In this document: positions 2,746 to 38,975 of the stretch, one piece after another | How positions within the stretch are numbered: position 1 is the first letter of the stretch | How the letters are laid out: every line of letters begins with the position of its first letter | Source: an uncultured Clostridia bacterium | GTDB taxonomy: Bacteria > Bacillota > Clostridia > Christensenellales > UBA1242 | Assembly: GCA_934772045.1 (NCBI GenBank) | Contig: CAKVMH010000002.1 | Coordinates: 91,062-155,061 of the forward strand | Reading direction: 5' to 3' | Length of the DNA stretch: 64,000 nucleotides | Position numbers and translations under genes: made by a program | Notes under the pieces: generated by a model | What the model saw: the letters and a program-made list of their open reading frames with translations, nothing else | Database searches by the model: none | Told to the model about the DNA's origin: nothing

Positions 2746-3804
2746 ATGAAACAAACAAAAGTTGTTCAAATTGGTTGTGGCAAAATGAGCAAGTACACAA
2801 TGCGCTATGTTTATGAAAAAGGCGGTGTTGTACTTGCAGGTTTTGACATTAATAAAAAATTAATTGGTAAAGATATCAAAGCTGTAATTGGTGGCAAAAA
2901 AGATTATGGTGCTAAAATTTATGATGTGCAAGAATTGGAAGCACAACTTAAAATTTTAAAACCAGATGTTGCAATTGTTACAACCATGAGTTTGATGACA
3001 GACTGTATTGATGTACTTATGATTTGTGCAAAATGTGGCGTTAACGCTATCACCACTTGTGAAGAAGCATTTTATCCAAGCAACAGCGCAAAGAAACTTA
3101 CCGCTAAGCTTGACAAACTTGCCAAAGCAAACAAATGCACCATTACTGGTTCAGGTTATCAAGATTTCAGTTGGGGTAGCATGGTTGCAGGTTTGGCAGG
3201 CACCAGTCAATCAATTAAAAAGATTAAAGGTAAATCAAGTTACAACGTTGAAGATTACGGCATTGCATTGGCGCAAGTCCATGGCGCAGGTTTAACACCA
3301 AAAGAATTTGAAGAAAAAATCGTGCCAGCAAATTGCGTGTCTTATGAAGAAAGCCAAGCTTTAATTGCAAAAGGTGAATTTTTACCATCATACATGTGGA
3401 ATGTTAATGGTTGGCTTTGCGAATGTTTAGGTTTGCATGTTGTTAGTCAATCACAAAAATGTGTTGCTCAAAAAGCAAAAGCGGACATTAAATCATCAAC
3501 ACTCAACATGGTGGTTAAAAAAGGTCATTGCACAGGTATGAGCGCGGTTGTCACAACCGAAACAAAAGAAGGCATCACAATTGAAAGTGAATGTATTGGT
3601 AAGGTTTACGCACCAGATGAATTCGACCAAAACGAATGGTCAATTATTGGTGAACCAAACACCACTATTACAGTTTCACGCCCATCGACTGTTGAATTGA
3701 CTTGTGCATCAGTTGTTAACCGCATTCCAGACCTTATTAAAGCAGAACCTGGTTATGTGCCAACATGCAGAATGGGTGACATCACATTTAAGACAAAAAT
3801 CTAA
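2746..3804 (+). CDS. NAD(P)-binding oxidoreductase, DapB-like / amine dehydrogenase (2,4-diaminopentanoate dehydrogenase-like) family
   Basis: N-terminal Rossmann motif VVQIGCGKMS. Length of about 350 aa and general resemblance to DapB N-domain amine dehydrogenases, from memory only. RBS AAGGGGG lies upstream. Confidence 0.45.
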   Translation: MKQTKVVQIGCGKMSKYTMRYVYEKGGVVLAGFDINKKLIGKDIKAVIGGKKDYGAKIYDVQELEAQLKILKPDVAIVTTMSLMTDCIDVLMICAKCGVNAITTCEEAFYPSNSAKKLTAKLDKLAKANKCTITGSGYQDFSWGSMVAGLAGTSQSIKKIKGKSSYNVEDYGIALAQVHGAGLTPKEFEEKIVPANCVSYEESQALIAKGEFLPSYMWNVNGWLCECLGLHVVSQSQKCVAQKAKADIKSSTLNMVVKKGHCTGMSAVVTTETKEGITIESECIGKVYAPDEFDQNEWSIIGEPNTTITVSRPSTVELTCASVVNRIPDLIKAEPGYVPTCRMGDITFKTKI

Positions 3805-3824
3805 TTTAACTTTTTTGTATTGAA

Positions 3825-3854
3825 AAACGATAATCAACAATAGTCATCGTTTTA
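3825..3854 (+). terminator. Intrinsic terminator after the oxidoreductase gene
   Basis: AAACGAT / ATCGTTT stem followed by a T-run. Confidence 0.5.
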
Positions 3855-3893
3855 TTGAATGAATATATAAATTTTTTGCTGAAACATTGAAAG

Positions 3894-3924
3894 AAAAAAG
3901 TCCCTAGTAACATAGGGGCTTTTT
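3894..3924. terminator. Bidirectional intrinsic terminator between convergent genes
   Basis: A-run, AGTCCCTA-gtaaca-TAGGGGCT stem (one G-U pair), then a T-run. Confidence 0.6.
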
Positions 3925-3930
3925 GATTGT

Positions 3931-3987
3931 GACTAACAAGAAACCAAATTTATGAGTGCCAGCGAAATAAATTGGTTTATTATTTTT
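3931..3987 (-). repeat. Stop-codon-adjacent hairpin repeat, copy R1
   Basis: AACCAAATTTAT-gagtgccagcgaa-ATAAATTGGTT. Same family as 38818..38975 and 46519..46571. Lies 2 nt from the TAG of tail copy 1. Confidence 0.7.
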
Positions 3988-3989
3988 GT

Positions 3990-4040
3990 CTATCTCGCAT
4001 TCTGCGATTGCGGGCTAACTGCCGTAGGATATAGTGGCAA
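3990..4040 (-). pseudogene. Displaced copy 1 of the last 16 codons plus stop of CDS 4184..4849
   Basis: Reverse strand reads LPLYPTAVSPQSQNAR-TAG. It differs from the intact tail at 4 nt, all at third codon positions (AGG>AGA, CAG>CAA, AGT>AGC, TAA>TAG). No start codon or RBS. Confidence 0.8.
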
Positions 4041-4084
4041 AGAAAGATTAAAATCTTTGCTTAACCTTTGGTACCGCCTAGCGT

Positions 4085-4129
4085 TTATCTCGCATTCTGT
4101 GACTGCGGGCTAACCGCTGTCGGATACAA
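4085..4129 (-). pseudogene. Displaced copy 2 of the last 14 codons plus stop of CDS 4184..4849
   Basis: Reverse strand reads LYPTAVSPQSQNAR-TAA, in frame with the intact gene (99 nt apart, two stops between). There are 6 nt differences, all synonymous third positions. Confidence 0.8.
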
Positions 4130-4183
4130 AACAAAGTATGTTTCGTAAAACTCAACATATTTGTCTGACTATATCTCCGTCAG

Positions 4184-4849
4184 TTACCTCGCATTCTGCG
4201 ACTGCGGACTAACTGCCGTAGGATATAGTGGCAAATCGAACACGCCTGGGCAGACGTCGCCACCTGTGTATGGTGTGCATGGTGGGATTGGGCAATAGCC
4301 ATAACTTGGCACCAAAACATCTACATCGGCAACAACTTTTAAGATAGTGCTTACGCATGCGTTGATAGTAAATCCACCGGTGGTTGCATTGTATGTACCT
4401 GCAGAAATAACTGCTGTACCAAATGCAACAACTTCAATAGGTGTTAATGATGGTTGTGGCACATACAAAATAACATCTTGTGGTAAACTAATTGTGCCAG
4501 TAGCAGTGCCTGCCACATTGTTAGCATCTGTGTATGTAACTGTTACAGGAACATTGATTGTGGCTTGAACACGTGCAAAATTTGGTCTGTCGTCAAAGCG
4601 AGTGATGTTGACATTGCTAACAGTTGCCTTGCCACCAAGTGAATTTCCACTTACAAATGTTAATGGGCGGGTTGGATTGGCTGGATTTAAATCTGTAAGT
4701 GCCAAAGCATAATCTTCTAATTGAGTTTGGTTCATACAAGCGTCAAACACTTTGGTTACTTGTATACAAATTCTTTCGCAAAGCCCATTTGTAACATTGT
4801 TCGTCTGTCCAGGGAATATGCCCGGACGCGAATCAGTATAAAATGACAT
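4184..4849 (-). CDS. Hypothetical Cys-rich protein with a T/V/N-rich beta-type core (possible spore-surface structural protein)
   Basis: 221-aa ORF with a strong RBS (AGGAGGTAAAAATG). Cys clusters GLCERICIQVTKVFDAC (N-terminal) and YGYCPIPPCTPYTGGDVCPG (C-terminal). No signal peptide. No family assigned with confidence. Confidence 0.7.
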   Translation of the reverse strand: MSFYTDSRPGIFPGQTNNVTNGLCERICIQVTKVFDACMNQTQLEDYALALTDLNPANPTRPLTFVSGNSLGGKATVSNVNITRFDDRPNFARVQATINVPVTVTYTDANNVAGTATGTISLPQDVILYVPQPSLTPIEVVAFGTAVISAGTYNATTGGFTINACVSTILKVVADVDVLVPSYGYCPIPPCTPYTGGDVCPGVFDLPLYPTAVSPQSQNAR

Positions 4850-12261: not shown

Positions 12262-13575
12262 ATGAAATTGAAAAATAAAAAAGTTTTAGTGTATGGTTTA
12301 AGTGCATCTGGTGAATGGGCAAGCCGTTTGCTTGTAAAGCATAAGGCAAATGTTTTTTTGTATGATGACGATGAACAAAAGTTACGCTCACGTCGCTTAA
12401 AAAACTGTTTTGTGTTGCAAGAAATAACTGAAAATGTCATTTCCGACCTTGATTTTATTGTTGTTTCGCCAGCAATTGAAAAGGACAATAAAAATTTGCA
12501 GTTGGCGGACAAGCATGGCATTTTAATAATGAGTGAAGTTGAATTCGCTTCTCACTTTGCCAAAAAATTTGTTGCAGTAACTGGCACCAACGGCAAAACC
12601 ACAACAGTGGAACTTATTGAAGCAATTTTAAGTGAAAAATACAAGGCAATTGCATGCGGGAACACAGGCTATCCGCTGTCACGCGCAGTGCTTGAAAACA
12701 AAAACTACATAAAAGTGGTGGAAGTAAGCAGTTTCATGCTGGAACATGCGTCAACTTTTGCGCCACATGTTGCCACAATTTTAAACATCGAGCCAGACCA
12801 CCTAATTCGCCACAAAACCATGGCAGAGTACACAAAACTTAAATTCAACATATTTAAAAATTTAAAACCCACCGATTATGCAGTGGTAAATTTGGACAGT
12901 AACATTCATTGCACCACGCACACAAATGTGGTTACATATTCATATCGCCACATGGCAGATGTTTATTATAACAAGGGTAGTATTTATTTGCACCAACAAA
13001 AGGTTATCGACATCAATCAATTGAAAATTTCAGGCAAGCACAACATTTTGAATGTGATGTGCGCCATTTGTTACGCTTACATTTATAAACTGCCAATTAC
13101 AAAAATCAAAACCGCGCTTATGAACTTCAATGCGGACAATTTTAGGAACACACCGCTTAATGTGGACGGCAACATCAAATTTATTAACGACAGCAAATCA
13201 ACCAACATAGCCTCAACTTTGGCAAGCGTGGAAGCATGCGACGGCGCAATTATTTTGTTACTAGGAGGGTCAAATAAAGGCTTAAATTACACCCAACTTT
13301 TTGAAAAATTGCCAAACAAAGTTAAACAAATTGTAGCATACGGTGAAATTAGGGAAACATTGGCAAACACAAACTCAAACTTAAACACAAATTTTAAATT
13401 TGCACAATTTGAAACATTGCAACAAGCCTTTGAATTTGCAACACAAAATGCAAAACCTGGCGACACAATTCTTTTTTCGCCGTCAAGCGCAAGTTACGAC
13501 CAATACGCAAACTATGTTGAGCGTGGCGAACATTTTAACAGTTTGGTGAAGGCGTATGTTGAAGCAAAAAACTAA
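12262..13575 (+). CDS. murD: UDP-MurNAc-L-alanine:D-glutamate ligase
   Basis: VTGTNGKTTT, DSKSTN and cluster position. Confidence 0.9.
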   Translation: MKLKNKKVLVYGLSASGEWASRLLVKHKANVFLYDDDEQKLRSRRLKNCFVLQEITENVISDLDFIVVSPAIEKDNKNLQLADKHGILIMSEVEFASHFAKKFVAVTGTNGKTTTVELIEAILSEKYKAIACGNTGYPLSRAVLENKNYIKVVEVSSFMLEHASTFAPHVATILNIEPDHLIRHKTMAEYTKLKFNIFKNLKPTDYAVVNLDSNIHCTTHTNVVTYSYRHMADVYYNKGSIYLHQQKVIDINQLKISGKHNILNVMCAICYAYIYKLPITKIKTALMNFNADNFRNTPLNVDGNIKFINDSKSTNIASTLASVEACDGAIILLLGGSNKGLNYTQLFEKLPNKVKQIVAYGEIRETLANTNSNLNTNFKFAQFETLQQAFEFATQNAKPGDTILFSPSSASYDQYANYVERGEHFNSLVKAYVEAKN

Positions 13576-14665
13576 CCAAATAATAATCATTTGTTGCACC
13601 TTTATCCTTGCCATTTTTGGTTGCATAATGGTGTATAGCGCAAGTAAATATTCTGCCACACTGCATTACAACAACCCTTTCTTTTACCTTAAAAAACAAA
13701 TAATAGGTGTGGTTGTTGGGGCAATAGGATTAATTGTCTGCTCGTTCGTCAATCATAAAATTTACAAAAAATTTTATTGGGTTTTCTATATCGTTGGCTT
13801 AATCTTTTTGTGCCTTGTGTTTGTGCCAGGGCTTAAACGCACAAGTTACGGCGCAACACGCTGGATAGGCATAGGCTCACTTACCATGCAACCAAGTGAA
13901 ATTGCAAAGTTTTGCCTTGTTTTCTTTTTGGCGGGCTATTTAAGCGACGGCGACAAACTTGGCAGTTTTAAACATGTCATTATAACGCTTACTCTTGGCG
14001 GACTGTATTGCTTGCTAATTATGTTAGAACCAAACATGAGCATAACCATGTGCGTTGCTTTCACGCTTATTTTTATGTTGTTTATTGGTGGCATGCGCCT
14101 AAAAGTTTTTTGTCTTTTAATTGTGCCAGCCGTCGCAATGGTTGTTTTGCTTATAATCATTGAACCTTACCGTTTAAGTCGAATAATAGCCTTCATAAAC
14201 CCATGGGAAAACCCACTTGACGAAGGATACCAACTCATTCAATCACTCTATGCTATCGGCAGTGGTGGAATGTGGGGCGTAGGGCTGTTTAAAAGCCGTC
14301 AAGCCGAATTGTTTTTGCCGTTCAGTGAAAGTGACTTTATATTTTCAATCATTGCCGAAGAACTTGGCTTTGTTGGGTGCTTGTGCCTTGTTGCAGTCTT
14401 TGCATTGCTTATCTTTACCATTTTCAAAGTTGGCATGCGCGCCAGCAACAAATTTTCATCATTCCTTTGTTTTGGCATAGGCGCACTCATAAGCATACAG
14501 GTTATTTTAAACATCGCAGTAGTTTCAGGCTCCATTCCGCCAACTGGCTTGCCTTTGCCGTTTATTAGTGCTGGCTCAACATCACTTCTCGTCTTCATGT
14601 CAGCAATCGGTATTGTTATCAATGTCGATAGGCAAACTAACAAGGAAATAAGTTTAAACAAATAG
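13556..14665 (+). CDS. ftsW: SEDS-family peptidoglycan glycosyltransferase FtsW/SpoVE
   Basis: About 10 TM segments. Motifs QPSEIAK, SESDFIFS, GLPLPFISAGSTS. Follows murD. Confidence 0.9.
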   Translation: MLKQKTNQIIIICCTFILAIFGCIMVYSASKYSATLHYNNPFFYLKKQIIGVVVGAIGLIVCSFVNHKIYKKFYWVFYIVGLIFLCLVFVPGLKRTSYGATRWIGIGSLTMQPSEIAKFCLVFFLAGYLSDGDKLGSFKHVIITLTLGGLYCLLIMLEPNMSITMCVAFTLIFMLFIGGMRLKVFCLLIVPAVAMVVLLIIIEPYRLSRIIAFINPWENPLDEGYQLIQSLYAIGSGGMWGVGLFKSRQAELFLPFSESDFIFSIIAEELGFVGCLCLVAVFALLIFTIFKVGMRASNKFSSFLCFGIGALISIQVILNIAVVSGSIPPTGLPLPFISAGSTSLLVFMSAIGIVINVDRQTNKEISLNK

Positions 14666-14746: not shown

Positions 14747-15118
14747 ATGGGAAATTTATCAAAAGCAGATTTACAATGGAATAAAATGATGGATTTATGG
14801 GTTGAAGAAAAATTGGAATCACCATATTTAGAACTTATTGAATATTTTAATGGTATCAATGGAGAGGGACATTTTTGCCATTTTGATAATGTGAGTGATA
14901 ATAAAGACTTAAAAAAATATGTTACAACATTAACGACAATTCTGCCAGAACCATTAAAGAGCAACATTGAACTTGCTTATAAAACATACAAAATTAATCC
15001 AGACGATATAAGCGATGAAAATGAAGAAATATTAAATAATTGTGATAGCGTTTATTATAAAAATGAAGAACTTATTAGTGAAATTTTAAGAAAAAGAGCA
15101 AGTAAAATTAAGTTATAA
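14747..15118 (+). CDS. Small acidic hypothetical protein, possibly DUF4375/DMP19-like (immunity-type fold)
   Basis: RBS TAGGAGG. 123 aa. YFNGINGEGHFCHFDN resembles the vNNGGf.qFf.N core I recall for DUF4375 (low confidence). Bracketed by duplicated ftsW 3' ends. Confidence 0.6.
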   Translation: MGNLSKADLQWNKMMDLWVEEKLESPYLELIEYFNGINGEGHFCHFDNVSDNKDLKKYVTTLTTILPEPLKSNIELAYKTYKINPDDISDENEEILNNCDSVYYKNEELISEILRKRASKIKL

Positions 15119-15179: not shown

Positions 15180-15287
15180 GGCTCCATTCCGCCAACAGGC
15201 TTGCCTTTGCCGTTTATTAGTGCCGGCTCAACATCACTTTTAGTCTTTATGTCTGCAATCGGTATTGTTATCAATGTCGATAGGCAG
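15180..15287 (+). pseudogene. Displaced copy of the ftsW 3' end (36 codons)
   Basis: 108 nt colinear with 14528..14635. There are 7 nt differences in 6 codons, all synonymous (ACT/ACA, GCT/GCC, CTC/TTA, TTC/TTT, TCA/TCT, CAA/CAG). No upstream ORF. Confidence 0.9.
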
Positions 15288-15399: not shown

Positions 15400-15440
15400 A
15401 TGTCCGCAATCGGCGTTGTTTTAAATGTAGATAGGCAAAC
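15400..15440 (+). pseudogene. Second, more diverged stub of the ftsW C-terminus
   Basis: Reads MSAIGVVLNVDRQT against MSAIGIVINVDRQT in ftsW. Changes are synonymous or conservative (I>V, I>L). Confidence 0.7.
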
Positions 15441-15650
15441 AATAAATTTTTACTATAAAAATTAGTGTATTAGATATTGCAAATCATATATTTATAATGT
15501 GATAAGTGTTGAGATATATTTAAGTTATAAAGACAAAAATCAACCATTTATCCGTCTTTAAATTATATGGCATTTAATATTAAATGCAGTGTTGATATTG
15601 GCTGTTGCAAAATTGCGCGCAAAGAGAACAAAAAATTCATATAACCTTAT

Positions 15651-27759: not shown

Positions 27760-27785
27760 ATAATATATTTTAAGGAGTGTTAGTC

Positions 27786-30197
27786 ATGGCGATGTATTAC
27801 CTTGTTGAACAAAACGGAGAGCATTTTTATGTGGACGCAGGTGGGCGACGCGTTCCAGAAGAAAACTTAAAGGGGGACTTTACTTCGGTCAATTATGACG
27901 CTGATTTGGCTTCAAGTAAAGTTAAAACTATAACTCAAAGTGGCAAATTCGGCTACCAAACATTAGATGGGCAACCTCTTGTTGATTGTGTTTTAGACTA
28001 TGACATTAAAACCGCACAAGGTTTTGTGGATGCAATGTCAAGCCTTAAAGCAAAATATATTCAACTTATCCAACAACATCCAGAGAATAAAGCCAAACTT
28101 AGGCAGGAACTTGAACAAGAGGTTAAAAATCTGCATGGGGCAAGGTTAAAAATTATTGCTCATATGCAAAAGTTGGAAAGGGAAGCAACTGCTGAAAAGG
28201 AAACCGCCAAAACACCTTCCAACACAACAGAAACTGTTTCGCCAGCCAAAACAAACAACGCCACAACTTCAACCGCAACAACGCCTGTAACGACAACCGA
28301 AAGCTCTTCACAAACCAAAACCCCTTTGGGCAATGGCATCACAATGCTTAGGGATACACAAGGTCACTACGGCTATGAAGATAAAGATGGCAACATATTT
28401 ATTCCTTGCGACTTGCCAATAGATGTGTCTGCTCCTTCAAAAACATATAACGCTTCAGTAACAAAACTTTTTGAGGAATGCAAAGTTAAGCTTAATTTAT
28501 GCACACCAAGTGAAAAGCAAGCGTTAATAAATGAATATAAGCAATTGTCAGAACGCATACAGACCGCTAGGCAAGCATACAACAGTAAAGTTAAAGAATT
28601 GAAAACATCAAACAGCACCAGCACAGCTACAGCCGAAACAGCTACAGCAAAAACCGCAGAACCAAGCACAACAGACACCAACAAAGTGGCCGAAACTAAA
28701 GCCAGCACCAGTGAAACCAATAATACAACAGGTAAATTTGGCATAACTATTGTAACTGACTCTAATAGCAAACGTCTACATGTAAAAGACGAAAATGGTA
28801 AAATAGTAAAAGACTATCGATTTATGAGTTTTTCACCTGAAGAAAATGTGTATGTTGTTGAAGGCAAACATATTTTTGATTATGGAGTTTTAAATGCAGA
28901 AGGAAAAGAAATTGTTCCTTGTGGCAAATATGTAAAAATTGGACTTTCCTTTTCTGAAGGCCTTGTGTGGGTTGTGAGCAGAGATGATTATCACATCAAG
29001 TTTATTAATAAAGATGGTAATGTTGTTATAGATTCGGACTATACCGATGCTTCTAACTTTTCCGAAGGCTTTGCCGCTGTTAAAAAAGATGGCAAATGGG
29101 GTTTCATCGATAAAGATGGCAAAAAAATTGGTGAATTTGAATATGATGGTGTCCAGCCTTTTCATGATGGTTTAGCGTTGGTTTCAAAAGACGGAGCAAA
29201 AGGTTTTATCGATAAAGATGGCAAAAAACTCGGTGAAATCGAGTATGACGAAACGTATACTCACAGTTTTACGAATGGATTGGCATGTGTCAAAAAGAAG
29301 AATGGTGAATTTGGTGTAATTGATACAAATGGTAATCCAGTTATAGATTTCGGCAAATATGAGTATATTGGCGATTTTGATCGTGAATATACAAAGGCTA
29401 AAGGGAAAGATGGTAAATATGGCATAATAAATAGAAGTGGTGATCCAATTGTAAAATTTGAATACGATAGCTTGCATATATGTGGCGAAAATCTTGTAGA
29501 AGTGTTTAAAGATGGGAAATATGGTTTTATTGATATACATGGAAACGTAATTGTAGATATCAATTGTATTACTTCAAATATACTTACTCGTGGCTTAGTA
29601 TATTTCAGGAGCAAAGAAAAACAAGGCTTGGTTAATGACGATGGTGTCGTTTCATATTACGATCAAGTTATAGATAGAATGTCCGATGATTTTGTTAGTG
29701 TTAAAAAAGATGGTAAATGGGGTTATGTCAATAAAAAAGGTGAACTCCTTAAAGGTGGCTATATTTATGATAAAACCGAAGATTTTTATTACGAACGAGC
29801 CATTGTTAATATAAATGGTAAATGGGGCTTAATTAATAATGATGGCGACATAATTATAGGTTGTGATTATGATGGAATCCATCAAATCATAAGTGGAAAT
29901 TTTGTTTACGCAGAAAAAGATGGCAAATTTGGCATTTTTGATAGAGATGGCATTGAAATTGTTAAATGTACATTAACAGAGGAAGAGGCCGATGAAGCAA
30001 TTGCTAAACTGAAAGAGGGCACATTTAACCCTGAAGATTATAAGCAGGAAACAGTAGGAGCAAACAGCAAGAGAAACACAGGCATCACTGGTGACGATAA
30101 AAGTTTAACAGATGGTGATGAGGGAGTAACTAGCGACGGTGAAGATGTCACTGATTGCGACGACGGCGTTACTGGTGACGGCGGTATAACTGTCTAA
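27786..30197 (+). CDS. Large WG-repeat (KWG-type beta-propeller repeat) protein
   Basis: More than 10 repeats of the KDGKWGFIDKDGK.i.efeYD type. ATG 27786 is preferred over track GTG 27777 because AAGGAG lies 8 nt upstream. Two T/S-rich linkers. No signal peptide. Confidence 0.8.
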   Translation: MAMYYLVEQNGEHFYVDAGGRRVPEENLKGDFTSVNYDADLASSKVKTITQSGKFGYQTLDGQPLVDCVLDYDIKTAQGFVDAMSSLKAKYIQLIQQHPENKAKLRQELEQEVKNLHGARLKIIAHMQKLEREATAEKETAKTPSNTTETVSPAKTNNATTSTATTPVTTTESSSQTKTPLGNGITMLRDTQGHYGYEDKDGNIFIPCDLPIDVSAPSKTYNASVTKLFEECKVKLNLCTPSEKQALINEYKQLSERIQTARQAYNSKVKELKTSNSTSTATAETATAKTAEPSTTDTNKVAETKASTSETNNTTGKFGITIVTDSNSKRLHVKDENGKIVKDYRFMSFSPEENVYVVEGKHIFDYGVLNAEGKEIVPCGKYVKIGLSFSEGLVWVVSRDDYHIKFINKDGNVVIDSDYTDASNFSEGFAAVKKDGKWGFIDKDGKKIGEFEYDGVQPFHDGLALVSKDGAKGFIDKDGKKLGEIEYDETYTHSFTNGLACVKKKNGEFGVIDTNGNPVIDFGKYEYIGDFDREYTKAKGKDGKYGIINRSGDPIVKFEYDSLHICGENLVEVFKDGKYGFIDIHGNVIVDINCITSNILTRGLVYFRSKEKQGLVNDDGVVSYYDQVIDRMSDDFVSVKKDGKWGYVNKKGELLKGGYIYDKTEDFYYERAIVNINGKWGLINNDGDIIIGCDYDGIHQIISGNFVYAEKDGKFGIFDRDGIEIVKCTLTEEEADEAIAKLKEGTFNPEDYKQETVGANSKRNTGITGDDKSLTDGDEGVTSDGEDVTDCDDGVTGDGGITV

Positions 30198-30212
30198 TAA
30201 AAGGAGAAATTT

Positions 30213-31292
30213 ATGGGAATGTTATCAGATATGAGTAAGTATAATGATTCAGCAATTTATAGTTTAGAACAATACCCTATAAATTATTTTACCAGGGAAG
30301 AGTATACTGAATCGTCAGACTTTTCTGGTTCTGACCTAATATTGGTTGAGAAAAATGGTGTTTATGGATATTTAAACCGCCACACTAGGCGTTTGTTAAA
30401 ACCAGGGCTTGACTATCAAGACGCTTTACCATTTTCATGTGGCAGAGGTGTTGTTAAGCGCAATGGCAAATGGGGTGCAATTGATGAAAAAGGTGATATT
30501 GCGGTTGATTTGATTTATGAATCATTAACAACGTTTGCCGAGGACAAGGCATATTGTAAAATTAATGGGAAATATGGATGCATAGGTTTGAATGGCGAAA
30601 TAATTTTCGAACCGATATATCAATTTTCAGGCACGTACCACGAAGATTTTTGTGCAGTAAAACTTGGCGATCAATGGGGTTATGTAAATAAGGAAGGGAA
30701 TAAGACAAGTGCATTTATATTTGATGGTGCACGTCCATTTTCATGTGGGTTAGCAGGGGTTTTGTTCGATGACAAATGGAATTACATCAATTATTCCGGT
30801 AAAATGGTCATTCAATCACCTATAACAAGCCCTTATCAAGATTGTTGTGATTTTGCTGATGGTTACGCGGCTGTTAAACAAAAGGGTAAATGGGGCTTTA
30901 TTGACACAGATGGTGAAAAGGCAGTACCATGTCGTTATCAAGAAGTTGGCATGTTTAAAGACAATATGTTCCCAGTTAAAAAGAATGATAAGTGGGGCTA
31001 TATTGAAAATACCAATGAAGAAAAATTTGTTGTCCCTTGTATGCTACTATTCCCATTGGCAGAGAATGAAAATTTTGATATGACCGTTATAACTAAAATA
31101 CAAGGTTATTACAAAAAGAAAATTAATAATACTAAATCGCCTGCTCAAATTCAAAAGTATTCAAAAGAATGTGAAAAGGAAGTAGCAAGATACAAAAAAG
31201 CAAGAGAACTTTACAATGAATACATCAAACATCTGGCAGAGTTAGATCGTATGCGCAACAAAGGCTTTAACGACATTGATAATATAGAATAA
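30213..31292 (+). CDS. WG-repeat protein
   Basis: Repeats of the NGKWGAIDEKGD / GDQWGYVNKEGN / KGKWGFIDTDGE type. Charged helical C-terminus. Confidence 0.8.
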   Translation: MGMLSDMSKYNDSAIYSLEQYPINYFTREEYTESSDFSGSDLILVEKNGVYGYLNRHTRRLLKPGLDYQDALPFSCGRGVVKRNGKWGAIDEKGDIAVDLIYESLTTFAEDKAYCKINGKYGCIGLNGEIIFEPIYQFSGTYHEDFCAVKLGDQWGYVNKEGNKTSAFIFDGARPFSCGLAGVLFDDKWNYINYSGKMVIQSPITSPYQDCCDFADGYAAVKQKGKWGFIDTDGEKAVPCRYQEVGMFKDNMFPVKKNDKWGYIENTNEEKFVVPCMLLFPLAENENFDMTVITKIQGYYKKKINNTKSPAQIQKYSKECEKEVARYKKARELYNEYIKHLAELDRMRNKGFNDIDNIE

Positions 31293-35297: not shown

Positions 35298-35328
35298 TAA
35301 TGTTAAATTTATTTGACCTCTAGGGAGA

Positions 35329-35376
35329 TAAAAAACACAAGTTGTATGAGCTTGTGTTTTCGAGTGGTCCCGAAGG
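35329..35376 (-). repeat. Duplicate of the tRNA-Leu 3' end (12 nt) plus its terminator
   Basis: AAAAACACAAG...CTTGTGTTTTCGAGTGGTCCCGAAGG occurs again at 35494-35541, where it is part of the intact tRNA. Confidence 0.8.
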
Positions 35377-35528: not shown

Positions 35529-35614
35529 TGGTCCCGAAGGTCGGGGTCGAACCGACATGATATTGCTATCGCAAGATTTTGAGTCTTGTGCGTCTGCCAT
35601 TTCGCCACTTCGGG
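35529..35614 (-). tRNA. tRNA-Leu (anticodon CAA), CCA encoded
   Basis: Manual cloverleaf. Acceptor CCCGAAG/CTTCGGG. Anticodon stem CAAGA/TCTTG with loop CTCAAAA. Long variable arm GATA-gcaa-TATC. T arm GTCGG-TTCGACC-CCGAC. Confidence 0.9.
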
Positions 35615-35780: not shown

Positions 35781-35827
35781 GCGTCTGCCATTTCGCGATT
35801 GGGCGAAGGATTTTTCGCCACTTCGGG
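35781..35827 (-). pseudogene. tRNA-Leu 5'-half copy (acceptor and D arm) with a 22-nt insertion
   Basis: Reverse strand CCCGAAGTGGCGAA[aaatccttcgcccaatcgcgaa]ATGGCAGACGC matches nt 1-25 of the intact tRNA-Leu. No anticodon or T arm follows. Confidence 0.75.
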
Positions 35828-35882
35828 TTATATCATTAAGATGTTCGAAGTGACGAAGGAATTTTCGTCACTTCTAAACATT

Positions 35883-38817: not shown

Positions 38818-38975
38818 GTGAATACAACAAACCGAATTTACGAGCAAAGGCGAAGGAAATCGGTTTATTCTGAATACAACAAACCGATTTTACAAGTGTG
38901 AGCGAAGAAAATTGGTTTATTTTGGATACAACAACCATATTTATGGGCGAGAGCAAAATAAATTGGTTTGTTTTT
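38818..38975 (-). repeat. Three tandem 52-53-bp copies of the stop-codon-adjacent hairpin repeat (R2a-c)
   Basis: Units begin at 38818, 38871 and 38924. Each is GAATACAACAAACC-arm-loop(GAGCGAAG-like)-arm'-TTT(A/G)TT. Copy c overlaps the TAA of CDS 38974..39681. Confidence 0.8.

Follow-up and report, generated by a model that had tools for sequence, protein, structure and literature searches.

Orphan copies of a gene 3′ end in uncultured gut Clostridia are most likely a recurrent scar and not a new coding system

At the 3′ end of fda in Streptococcus thermophilus, the integrative and conjugative elements ICESt1 and ICESt3 and the cis-mobilizable elements (CIMEs) show duplication of the attachment sites attL and attR and accretion of elements. 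Homology-facilitated illegitimate recombination has reportedly been described in naturally transformable bacteria by de Vries and Wackernagel in 2002 and by Prudhomme and co-workers in 2002; the events described usually delete recipient DNA and do not duplicate it. Insertion with long target duplication was reportedly treated by Nobusato and co-workers in 2000. In the cases analysed by Furuta, Abe & Kobayashi (2010, Nucleic Acids Res 38:2428, PMC2853133), repeats of at least 46 bp flank the insert and sometimes overlap the 3′ ends of genes, while in a related genome the repeat is single and the insert absent. The members of this class have no mobility genes, their mechanism is unknown, they come mostly from recombination-prone bacteria, and their inserts carry restriction-modification genes. 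The locus described here lies in a 64-kb stretch of DNA from an uncultured Clostridia bacterium of the order Christensenellales (contig CAKVMH010000002.1; the whole stretch is called the window, or W). It is the 3′ end of a conserved gene with a strong ribosome-binding site, recognized as an open reading frame (ORF) at 4184–4849 on the minus strand, which encodes a Cys-rich protein of 221 residues. The functional gene end is followed by two orphan copies of itself, called stubs here, with short spacers in between. The array is most likely a recurrent scar in the genus and not a new coding system, and a constrained hairpin beside codon-clean stubs is the one element of the scar that leaves room for a more far-reaching reading.

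All features of the array are on the minus strand. A repeat search identified three direct copies of 51 nucleotides at 3991–4041, 4086–4136 and 4185–4235, with identities of 100, 76 and 94% and spacings of 95 and 99 nucleotides. A core of 29 nucleotides, with up to three mismatches allowed, matches solely the three array positions across the window (chance expectation 0.00), which confirms the three tail copies described in an earlier note on this DNA. The copies represent the last 15–17 codons and the stop codon of the gene, the protein product of which ends in ...FDLPLYPTAVSPQSQNAR. The functional tail (4184–4234) encodes LPLYPTAVSPQSQNAR followed by TAA. Stub 1 (4085–4129), found by the repeat search and codon comparison, encodes (FV)LYPTAVSPQSQNAR followed by TAA and lacks a usable reading frame. 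Stub 2 (3990–4040) encodes LPLYPTAVSPQSQNAR followed by TAG, and is probably the displaced original end of the gene. Spacer A (4130–4183), between the tail and stub 1, contains hairpin 1 (4165–4183) and hairpin 2 (4133–4162; AAATATGTT-GAGTTTTACGA-AACATACTTT). Spacer B (4041–4084), between the two stubs, contains a hairpin at 4043–4058 with a longer stem, GCAAAGA/TCTTTGC, that reaches into the first codons of stub 2.

The differences among the copies do not alter the encoded peptide. Ten columns of the shared 45 nucleotides are variable and all of them are synonymous, nine at third codon positions and one at the first position of a Leu codon (CTA/TTG). The earlier note was thus right that the variation is synonymous only, but its count of eight sites, all of them third positions, was too low. 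Random substitution almost never produces this outcome: none of 50,000 trials was all-synonymous for the eight changes between the tail and stub 1, and 0.35% were for the four changes between the tail and stub 2. The frame offsets had been given correctly as 99 nucleotides for the in-frame copy, which is separated from the gene by two stops, and 95 nucleotides for the other. Both stubs had been said to lack a start codon and a ribosome-binding site; no Shine-Dalgarno sequence is present, but both begin with TTG, a possible start codon. Inside the window, the antisense frame that is co-phased with the third positions is kept equally well (YLAFCDCGLTAVGY). Antisense coding was rejected because the TCN/AGY switches of Ser codons in the stub of locus L010 alter the antisense peptide and keep the sense peptide (hand translation). 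Therefore, the sense frame is the constrained one, since the antisense peptide changes across species.

The array is not an assembly artefact. The repeats, the reality of which the earlier note had left to be confirmed, recur in independent assemblies. A 397-kb MEGAHIT contig carries the identical array, and a Hadza contig carries a copy with 1.8% divergence; the NODE_..._cov format of its name points to a different, SPAdes-type assembler. The neighbouring genes are the same in 20 further contigs, in which the comparison covered these genes and not the arrays.

Stubs recur in related species. The survey comprised 80 species-representative loci of Candidatus Onthoplasma and other Christensenellales and the seven relevant loci among 31 returned by a metagenome pattern scan; the fetched loci of relatives are numbered L001–L135. 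One or two stubs are present 96–108 nucleotides past the stop codon in nine of the 80 species (L003, L005, L007, L010, L031, L038, L041, L045 and L055), in three of the seven metagenome contigs with the gene (L086, L095, where the distance is 82 nucleotides, and L105), and in the species P0001 (L134/L135). P0002, a second species with many contigs, has no stub and no polymorphism. A search with an nhmmer profile of the tail found no stub more than about 200 nucleotides from the gene, elsewhere in the 4-kb flanks or elsewhere in the window. Full-length tandem paralogues, from which stubs might have arisen by plain decay according to the earlier note, are absent from related loci: tblastn detected no second full or partial gene body in 81 loci, and the sole extra match was the window's own stub. 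No insert between repeats is longer than 66 nucleotides in 88 loci with 4-kb flanks.

The position of the terminator identifies the native gene end. A strong terminator follows closely in many module-free species, its A-tract starting about 10 nucleotides or less past the stop codon. In module-bearing species, the strong terminator sits behind the last stub, as does the intrinsic terminator of the Cys-rich gene in the window, found at 3894–3924 by a terminator scan. Therefore, the last stub and the terminator are the original gene end. The inserted unit appears to be a replacement tail with its stop codon and a spacer of 40–66 nucleotides, placed ahead of the codons LPLYP and the native tail and terminator.

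The sequences between the copies had been called unrelated in the earlier note. Spacers A and B are indeed unrelated to each other; however, they are not junk, because each is conserved in other genomes and hairpin 2 of spacer A is constrained. Type A, with the pattern CTGACGGAGATA.AGTCAG..AAATATGTTGAGTTT(T)ACGAAACATAYTTT, is carried by the window (4130–4183), L003, L005, L007, L031, L038, L041, L045, L086 and L105. It has been seen at the locus of the Cys-rich gene only and never without a stub behind it, and in several species it is preceded by the same 'tat cct acg gca gtt' haplotype of the functional tail as in the window. Type B is carried by the window (4041–4084), L055 and L134/L135, where the stem of the spacer is lengthened. 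The spacer of L010 is a composite in which the 5′ half of B runs into the hairpin of A, and two more types are found in L095 and as the first spacer of L038. Stub 1 of the window together with spacer B corresponds to the gene tail and 3′ untranslated region (UTR) of L055 and L010.

The junctions share a common sequence. Every stub begins at the same codon, ...TTT|(G)CCACTT, after a T-run, and a T-run follows the spacer hairpin in three of the four spacer types. At the point where stubs start, the gene itself reads hairpin-GTTCGATTTGCCACT; this GC-rich hairpin, recovered by a scan for terminator-like structures, is inside the coding region (4242–4257, minus strand, codons DVCPGV) and directly upstream of GATTTGCC, where all repeat copies begin. 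The right-hand junctions of all four spacer types would lie in a short T-run that matches GATTTGCC of the gene. This match suggests microhomology-mediated joining, by one-sided homologous recombination or by template switching at the terminator-like hairpin, and not the action of a dedicated recombinase.

The locus resembles insertions with long target duplication in that its direct repeats of 45–51 nucleotides, present three times, exceed 30 bp. Furthermore, strain L114 of the same species has the same protein with a single tail and no spacers, and most species representatives are single-tailed. By contrast, the inserts at the Cys-rich gene are 44–66 nucleotides long with no ORF in spacers A and B, the array copies are allelic variants with synonymous differences and not identical duplicates, the modules are stacked into three copies, and one spacer is conserved in the genus and has a constrained hairpin. 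A closer fit to this class is found at ftsW in the same window, where a repeat of 107 nucleotides flanks an insert of 652 nucleotides with one accessory gene; however, that gene is DMP19-like, whereas the published inserts carry restriction-modification systems. The array is similar to accretion at attachment sites in that a replacement 3′ end is supplied, the native end is left as an orphan repeat, and tandem arrays form by serial insertion. However, a full-size element or recombinase between the repeats was not found in 88 loci, and the inserts are two orders of magnitude below the size of known CIMEs. Similarity to homology-facilitated illegitimate recombination consists in the one homologous anchor, the gene body, combined with a microhomology join of the T-run to GATTTGCC, and in the addition of foreign or allelic DNA where a conserved gene borders on a variable region. 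The layout of repeats of 45–51 nucleotides and spacers of 44–54 nucleotides recalls a clustered regularly interspaced short palindromic repeat (CRISPR) array; however, the repeats are 76–94% identical, spacer A is common to at least ten species, and spacer B is shared with L055 and L134/L135. Diversity-generating retroelements also have a repeat at a gene 3′ end, but the substitutions here (T>C, G>A, A>G, C>T and T>G) are not adenine-specific and are all synonymous. Among the ORFs scanned there was neither a reverse transcriptase gene nor a cas gene, although no systematic search for them was made.

The codons of the stubs were compared with those of the tails in the same genomes for 14 stubs from 13 genomes, with one eroded copy left out. 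The comparison yielded 84 silent and 12 amino-acid-changing differences, which agrees with the claim of the earlier note that random decay does not account for the stubs and supports the view that they are not randomly decaying duplicates. Most of the amino-acid changes fall within the final four residues, a segment that is variable in functional tails as well, and the stub versions STNSR, STTNR, STNTR and SSNAR are alleles that serve as functional tails elsewhere. Most stubs are nearer in nucleotide sequence to the functional tails of other genomes than to their own tail. The stub of L010 has 13 differences from its own tail and four from the tail of L104; stub 1 of the window has six differences from its own tail, three from the tails of L004 and L010, and four from that of L055. 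Some decay is seen, with N>K in L003, P>S in L031, and a lost stop codon in L038, which also has a badly eroded second stub with a deletion. The codons at the 5′ edge of the stubs (PL) are often degraded, and the remainder is clean.

Strains of the window's species differ in the array. L114 has an identical protein, is 3.5% diverged and has one tail, no spacer and no repetitive extragenic palindromic (REP)-like hairpin; its single tail combines a 5′ half like that of stub 1 with the 3′ flank of stub 2, 'acaaaaat'. L113, which is 1.8% diverged, carries the array of three copies, and the third-position variants AGT/AGC, CAG/CAA and TCG/TCA are distributed over them in another way, a pattern indicative of gene conversion. 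The earlier note had proposed that the stubs diverged as functional tails in other lineages and were then imported. The resemblance to foreign functional tails upholds part of this proposal; however, it is not sufficient, because module A, the unit of functional tail and spacer A, is old, and recombination within the species and gene conversion are also needed.

Mean divergence between clades is 0.43 at third positions of the gene body, 0.50 in the tails and 0.52 in the stubs. Spacer A has a value of 0.427 outside hairpin 2, and hairpin 2 of 0.105; hairpin 2 is thus conserved about four times better than neutral sites. Module A appears to be old, of about the age of the species, because its non-hairpin part is as diverged as synonymous sites, and it appears to be partly constrained, with hairpin 2 probably under purifying selection. 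The peptides of the stubs are kept while their silent sites are saturated between clades. In the clade of the window, comparison with L003 and L105 gave a divergence of 0.15 for the tail, 0.11–0.14 for spacer A and 0.33–0.37 for the gene bodies. Since the tail and spacer A are closer than the bodies, recent exchange of modules between close relatives also occurs.

Hairpin 2 has a folding energy of −5 to −8 kcal/mol. In single-sequence folding, L010 retains a 9-bp stem with altered arms, which is the only compensatory case. The minimum free energy fold includes long-range pairing of the tail with stub 2; this is based on the palindrome TCGCA..TGCGA, which is confined to the clade of the window. 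At the gathering threshold, Rfam matched two tRNAs only, and nothing credible was found in the region at E-values up to 10. Hairpin 2 as a dispersed repeat or miniature inverted-repeat transposable element was rejected, because no further copy was found in the window or in the roughly 0.8 Mb of loci fetched. A small ORF starting at the conserved ATG of hairpin 2 was also rejected: its frame relative to the stub differs by species, and it ends after 15–26 codons (hand translation in three species).

The explanation that we favour, with belief and doubt about evenly balanced, is that the stubs are untranslated, displaced native gene ends that arose from self-healing insertions with long target duplication. 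The ancestral gene would have ended in ...LPLYPTAVSPQSxxxR-stop with a strong terminator close behind. Two insertions of a unit of about 95–100 nucleotides would have occurred directly ahead of the codons LPLYP, module B first and module A second, each unit bringing its own last 14–16 codons, a stop and a hairpin-bearing spacer of 44–54 nucleotides. Such an insertion would be self-healing, as the new copy becomes the functional tail and the former tail with all that is behind it shifts into the 3′ UTR. The module is flanked by homology, with the gene body and tail on the left and the stub on the right, and is therefore movable between strains by homologous recombination. It could be lost by deletion between the repeats and may persist as a presence/absence polymorphism. 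In the population, the stub would have its allelic counterpart in the tail that module-free alleles express, and it may exchange patches with the neighbouring functional copy. Through such recombination, selection on expressed tails would carry over to the stubs and keep their codons clean, and stubs would decay where the recombination fails. Hairpin 2 is probably an RNA element of the 3′ UTR that acts in stability, processing or partial termination, and this role may be the reason why the module is retained.

Several observations weigh against this explanation. The peptides of the stubs are intact in most species despite saturated synonymous sites and a module A that is as old as the species. 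The explanation needs long-lived coexistence of module-bearing and module-free alleles within species, together with frequent recombination, and such coexistence has been seen in one species only. The tail and the stub differ at 13 of 42 nucleotides in L010, L031 and L086, which is too many for gene conversion between them; therefore, refreshment of these stubs must come from other alleles. RNAalifold predicts eight pairs in spacer A with no scored covariation. The first origin of each module is deduced from the junction sequences, and the one left boundary common to four spacer types could indicate a site-specific process. Furthermore, all of the sequences compared are metagenome assemblies.

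A site-specific process is the core of a different explanation, in which the copies are scars of the attL/attR type left by integrative elements with the gene 3′ end as their target and a replacement tail within attP; these elements would have accreted and later shrunk to 50–60 nucleotides, as very small CIME-like remnants, and hairpin 2, with its inverted arms and conserved centre of 10–11 nucleotides, would be the core site of a recombinase. This would account for the block of identity that runs from a fixed left edge to the exact gene end, as it does with integrases of tRNA genes and gene 3′ ends, for the native look of the stub as against the functional tail, whose distinct haplotype accompanies spacer A, for the strong conservation of hairpin 2, and for 3′-end duplicates at three loci in one window. 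However, the tail and hairpin 2 are unmatched in IMG/VR (pattern scans), INPHARED phages and PLSDB plasmids (blastn), the insert from repeat to repeat is at most 66 nucleotides in 88 loci with no distant stub within 4 kb, and hairpin 2 is found solely at the locus of the Cys-rich gene. A scan for recombinase domains in the 10 ORFs around tRNA-Leu found none; it did not extend to the regions flanking ftsW and the Cys-rich gene. The part of spacer A outside the hairpin diverges at the neutral rate, which is not expected of a recently spreading element, and we consider this origin quite unlikely. The recombination site in the last 45 or so nucleotides, which the earlier note had offered as an alternative, finds no support in the same data. 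Yet another possibility is that the stubs are expressed and selected as coding sequence, as a micro-ORF (TTG/ATG-YPTAVSPQS...), by hairpin-dependent reinitiation or ribosome hopping, or after deletion of DNA in a subset of cells, such as the sporulating mother cell, by which the gene and the stub would be joined and the last four residues altered. The conservation of the peptide across clades with third positions saturated at 0.52 would be explained in this way, as would the constraint on the adjacent hairpin 2. An in-frame TTG or ATG is present within three codons of the Tyr codon in nine of the 15 stubs (hand reading), and the peptide differs from that of the own tail in eight of the 15, one of them heavily decayed; the differences usually concern the stop codon or the variable C-terminal residues, and species in which tail and stub differ include those of L007, L041, L086 and L095. 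However, the three frames across spacer A are all closed, the offsets from the gene stop range from 96 to 108 nucleotides and include every value modulo three, a Shine-Dalgarno sequence is lacking, six of the 15 stubs are without any start codon, and the ATG of hairpin 2 is variably out of frame. In seven of the 15, including both stubs of the window, the peptide is that of the own tail, so that nothing would be gained, and a lost stop, P>S, N>K and one eroded copy exist. A bypass like that of T4 gene 60 is not indicated, since the frames are closed, the only matching downstream Arg codon is the last of the stub, and the offsets are not frame-consistent. Expression of the stubs is therefore very unlikely.

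The earlier note favoured serial replacement of the gene body. If a whole body had been replaced by a foreign allele through horizontal transfer, the stubs would be recent neutral relics, and their resemblance to the functional tails of other lineages would follow; in the clade of the window, where the tail and spacer A are less diverged than the body, a recent import is plausible. However, the gene bodies of genomes with module A are unrelated beyond the relationships of the species, the module is as old as the genes between clades and neutral relics of such age should have decayed, and homologous replacement alone makes no duplicate. Body replacement is thus unlikely; the inserted piece is a tail, stop and spacer of about 100 nucleotides ahead of the native tail and terminator, and the proposal of the earlier note is nearly right about where the sequence variants came from, though not about mechanism or age. 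The remains of a tandem array of full-length paralogues, or a mixed-strain assembly artefact, are exceedingly improbable sources of the stubs. Short repeats beside strain variation are a classic source of misassembly, which matters for a comparison of metagenome assemblies; however, a second copy or partial body is present in none of 81 loci, the stubs all start at the same codon, and the array has been obtained from independent samples with apparently different assemblers, as judged from contig naming, with spacers conserved in at least ten species from different studies. We regard as a long shot the idea that hairpin 2, the codon-clean stub and the native terminator form one selected unit in which the stub is used. 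An abundant coat-like protein would then have its four hypervariable C-terminal residues exchanged, either through a regulated event between the tail and the stub (deletion or recombination, for instance in the mother cell during sporulation) or through unconventional translation guided by the hairpin; or the module would be a self-healing micro-insertion kept throughout the genus as a balanced polymorphism.

Orphan 3′ ends with synonymous-only differences can be misread as recoding signals, as recombinase sites or as coding elements that had gone unnoticed. In this genus of uncultured gut bacteria, they are traceable to what appear to be small self-healing insertions ahead of the native gene end, at the border of a variable gene islet. 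If the population-level explanation by displaced native ends is true, selection on an expressed sequence keeps an unexpressed allelic copy intact through recombination, and the class of insertions with long target duplication extends to gene-free inserts of about 100 nucleotides and to the Christensenellales. The conserved hairpin of 30 nucleotides in the 3′ UTR of a very conserved and probably abundant protein is a candidate regulatory RNA element.

The earlier note had also claimed the same kind of scar at ftsW and tRNA-Leu. The claim is correct for ftsW, where all six differences are synonymous, whereas tRNA-Leu has related partial duplicates of its 5′ and 3′ ends. The functional 3′ end of ftsW (13556–14665) is followed by the insert of 652 nucleotides, which contains a DMP19-like gene of 123 codons (14747–15118) with homologues that match PF14300, the DMP19 DNA-mimic family. 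The 107-nucleotide duplicate of the ftsW 3′ end (15180–15286) is 94% identical to the original, has silent differences only (six of six) and continues into another C-terminal extension; the second stub of the ftsW tail (MSAIGVVLNVDRQT...), which is shorter, is located at 15400–15441. The region upstream of the first ftsW stub resembles an eroded continuation of ftsW. In the related species of L133 (1750–2690; also L132), the same DMP19-like gene lies behind ftsW and precedes a stub that derives from the ftsW tail of the species itself; this stub is decaying, with silent and replacement changes and a one-nucleotide deletion that shifts the frame. In L131, the DMP19-like gene is present and the stub is absent. 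A dedicated ftsW-targeting cassette was considered and rejected, because more distant homologues of the 123-residue protein are encoded in unrelated contexts. In the species of L133, the gap before murA contains further accessory genes, for an acetyltransferase, an ASCH protein and an ADP-ribosylglycohydrolase, and the interval from ftsW to murA is another variable islet. The gene of tRNA-Leu(CAA) is at 35529–35614. A copy of its last 12 nucleotides with the terminator hairpin (35813–35848; 84% identity) is located 164 nucleotides downstream, and a pseudo-copy of its 5′ end with the upstream flank (35326–35376) is located about 213 nucleotides upstream; tRNA-Cys is beyond the 5′ pseudo-copy.

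The Cys-rich protein has 2,697 homologues; those that are named all come from metagenome-assembled genomes of uncultured gut Clostridia (Candidatus Onthoplasma, Christensenellales), and the best 120 homologues listed are 77–91% identical. No Pfam domain was found in the 221-residue protein, and NCBIfam gave a weak, sub-threshold match to the BMQ_0737 spore-coat family (E-value 4e-4). AlphaFold2 predicts an all-beta core with long strands in residues 28–179 at a predicted local distance difference test (pLDDT) score of about 90. Residues 1–28 and 180–221, including the whole Cys-rich C-terminal segment of 40 residues, have pLDDT values below 50, corresponding to disordered ends. A relative in the PDB was found neither by sequence search nor by fold comparison with Foldseek.

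The Cys-rich gene is monocistronic, and its actual terminator is the one at 3894–3924. The slot between the gene and the convergent engB (3804–4184 of the window compared with L001–L080) varies by species and contains an ord-like gene of 352 codons, ORFs of 328, 228 or 370 codons, or nothing. Because the content between the gene and engB differs between species, the tail is the last conserved sequence before a variable islet. The genes called beside the Cys-rich gene have matches to Metallophos and Methyltransf_5 and a faint match to DAP_DH_C only, according to the precomputed Pfam annotation.

Small structured inserts of several kinds have accumulated in the 3′ UTR of the Cys-rich gene. One is a REP-like hairpin element of about 46–52 nucleotides (AAACCAATTTAT...ATAAATTGGTTT), present once behind stub 2, at 3936–3981, where it belongs to a separate insertion of 54 nucleotides that strain L114 lacks, and three tandem relatives of it are located at 38824–38972. 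In other species, a conserved long-hairpin element (TCTCGATTTGTTGTG...CACAATCAAATCTCGCCTTAAGA) is found behind the tail or stub, at positions 4667–4760 of L016, 4772–4860 of L045 and 2439–2520 of L046.

Two further repeat families of the window are separate from the array. At 2621–2715, three tandem repeats of 31–32 nucleotides, each with the palindrome TTGAC-N5-GTCAA, are placed directly upstream of a gene similar to those of 2,4-diaminopentanoate dehydrogenases (2746–3804) and resemble an operator array. Two adjacent large ORFs are located at 27777–31292, and the one at 30213–31292 encodes WG-containing beta repeats (PF14903), which are the source of the largest direct-repeat families of the window and represent ordinary repeat-protein architecture.

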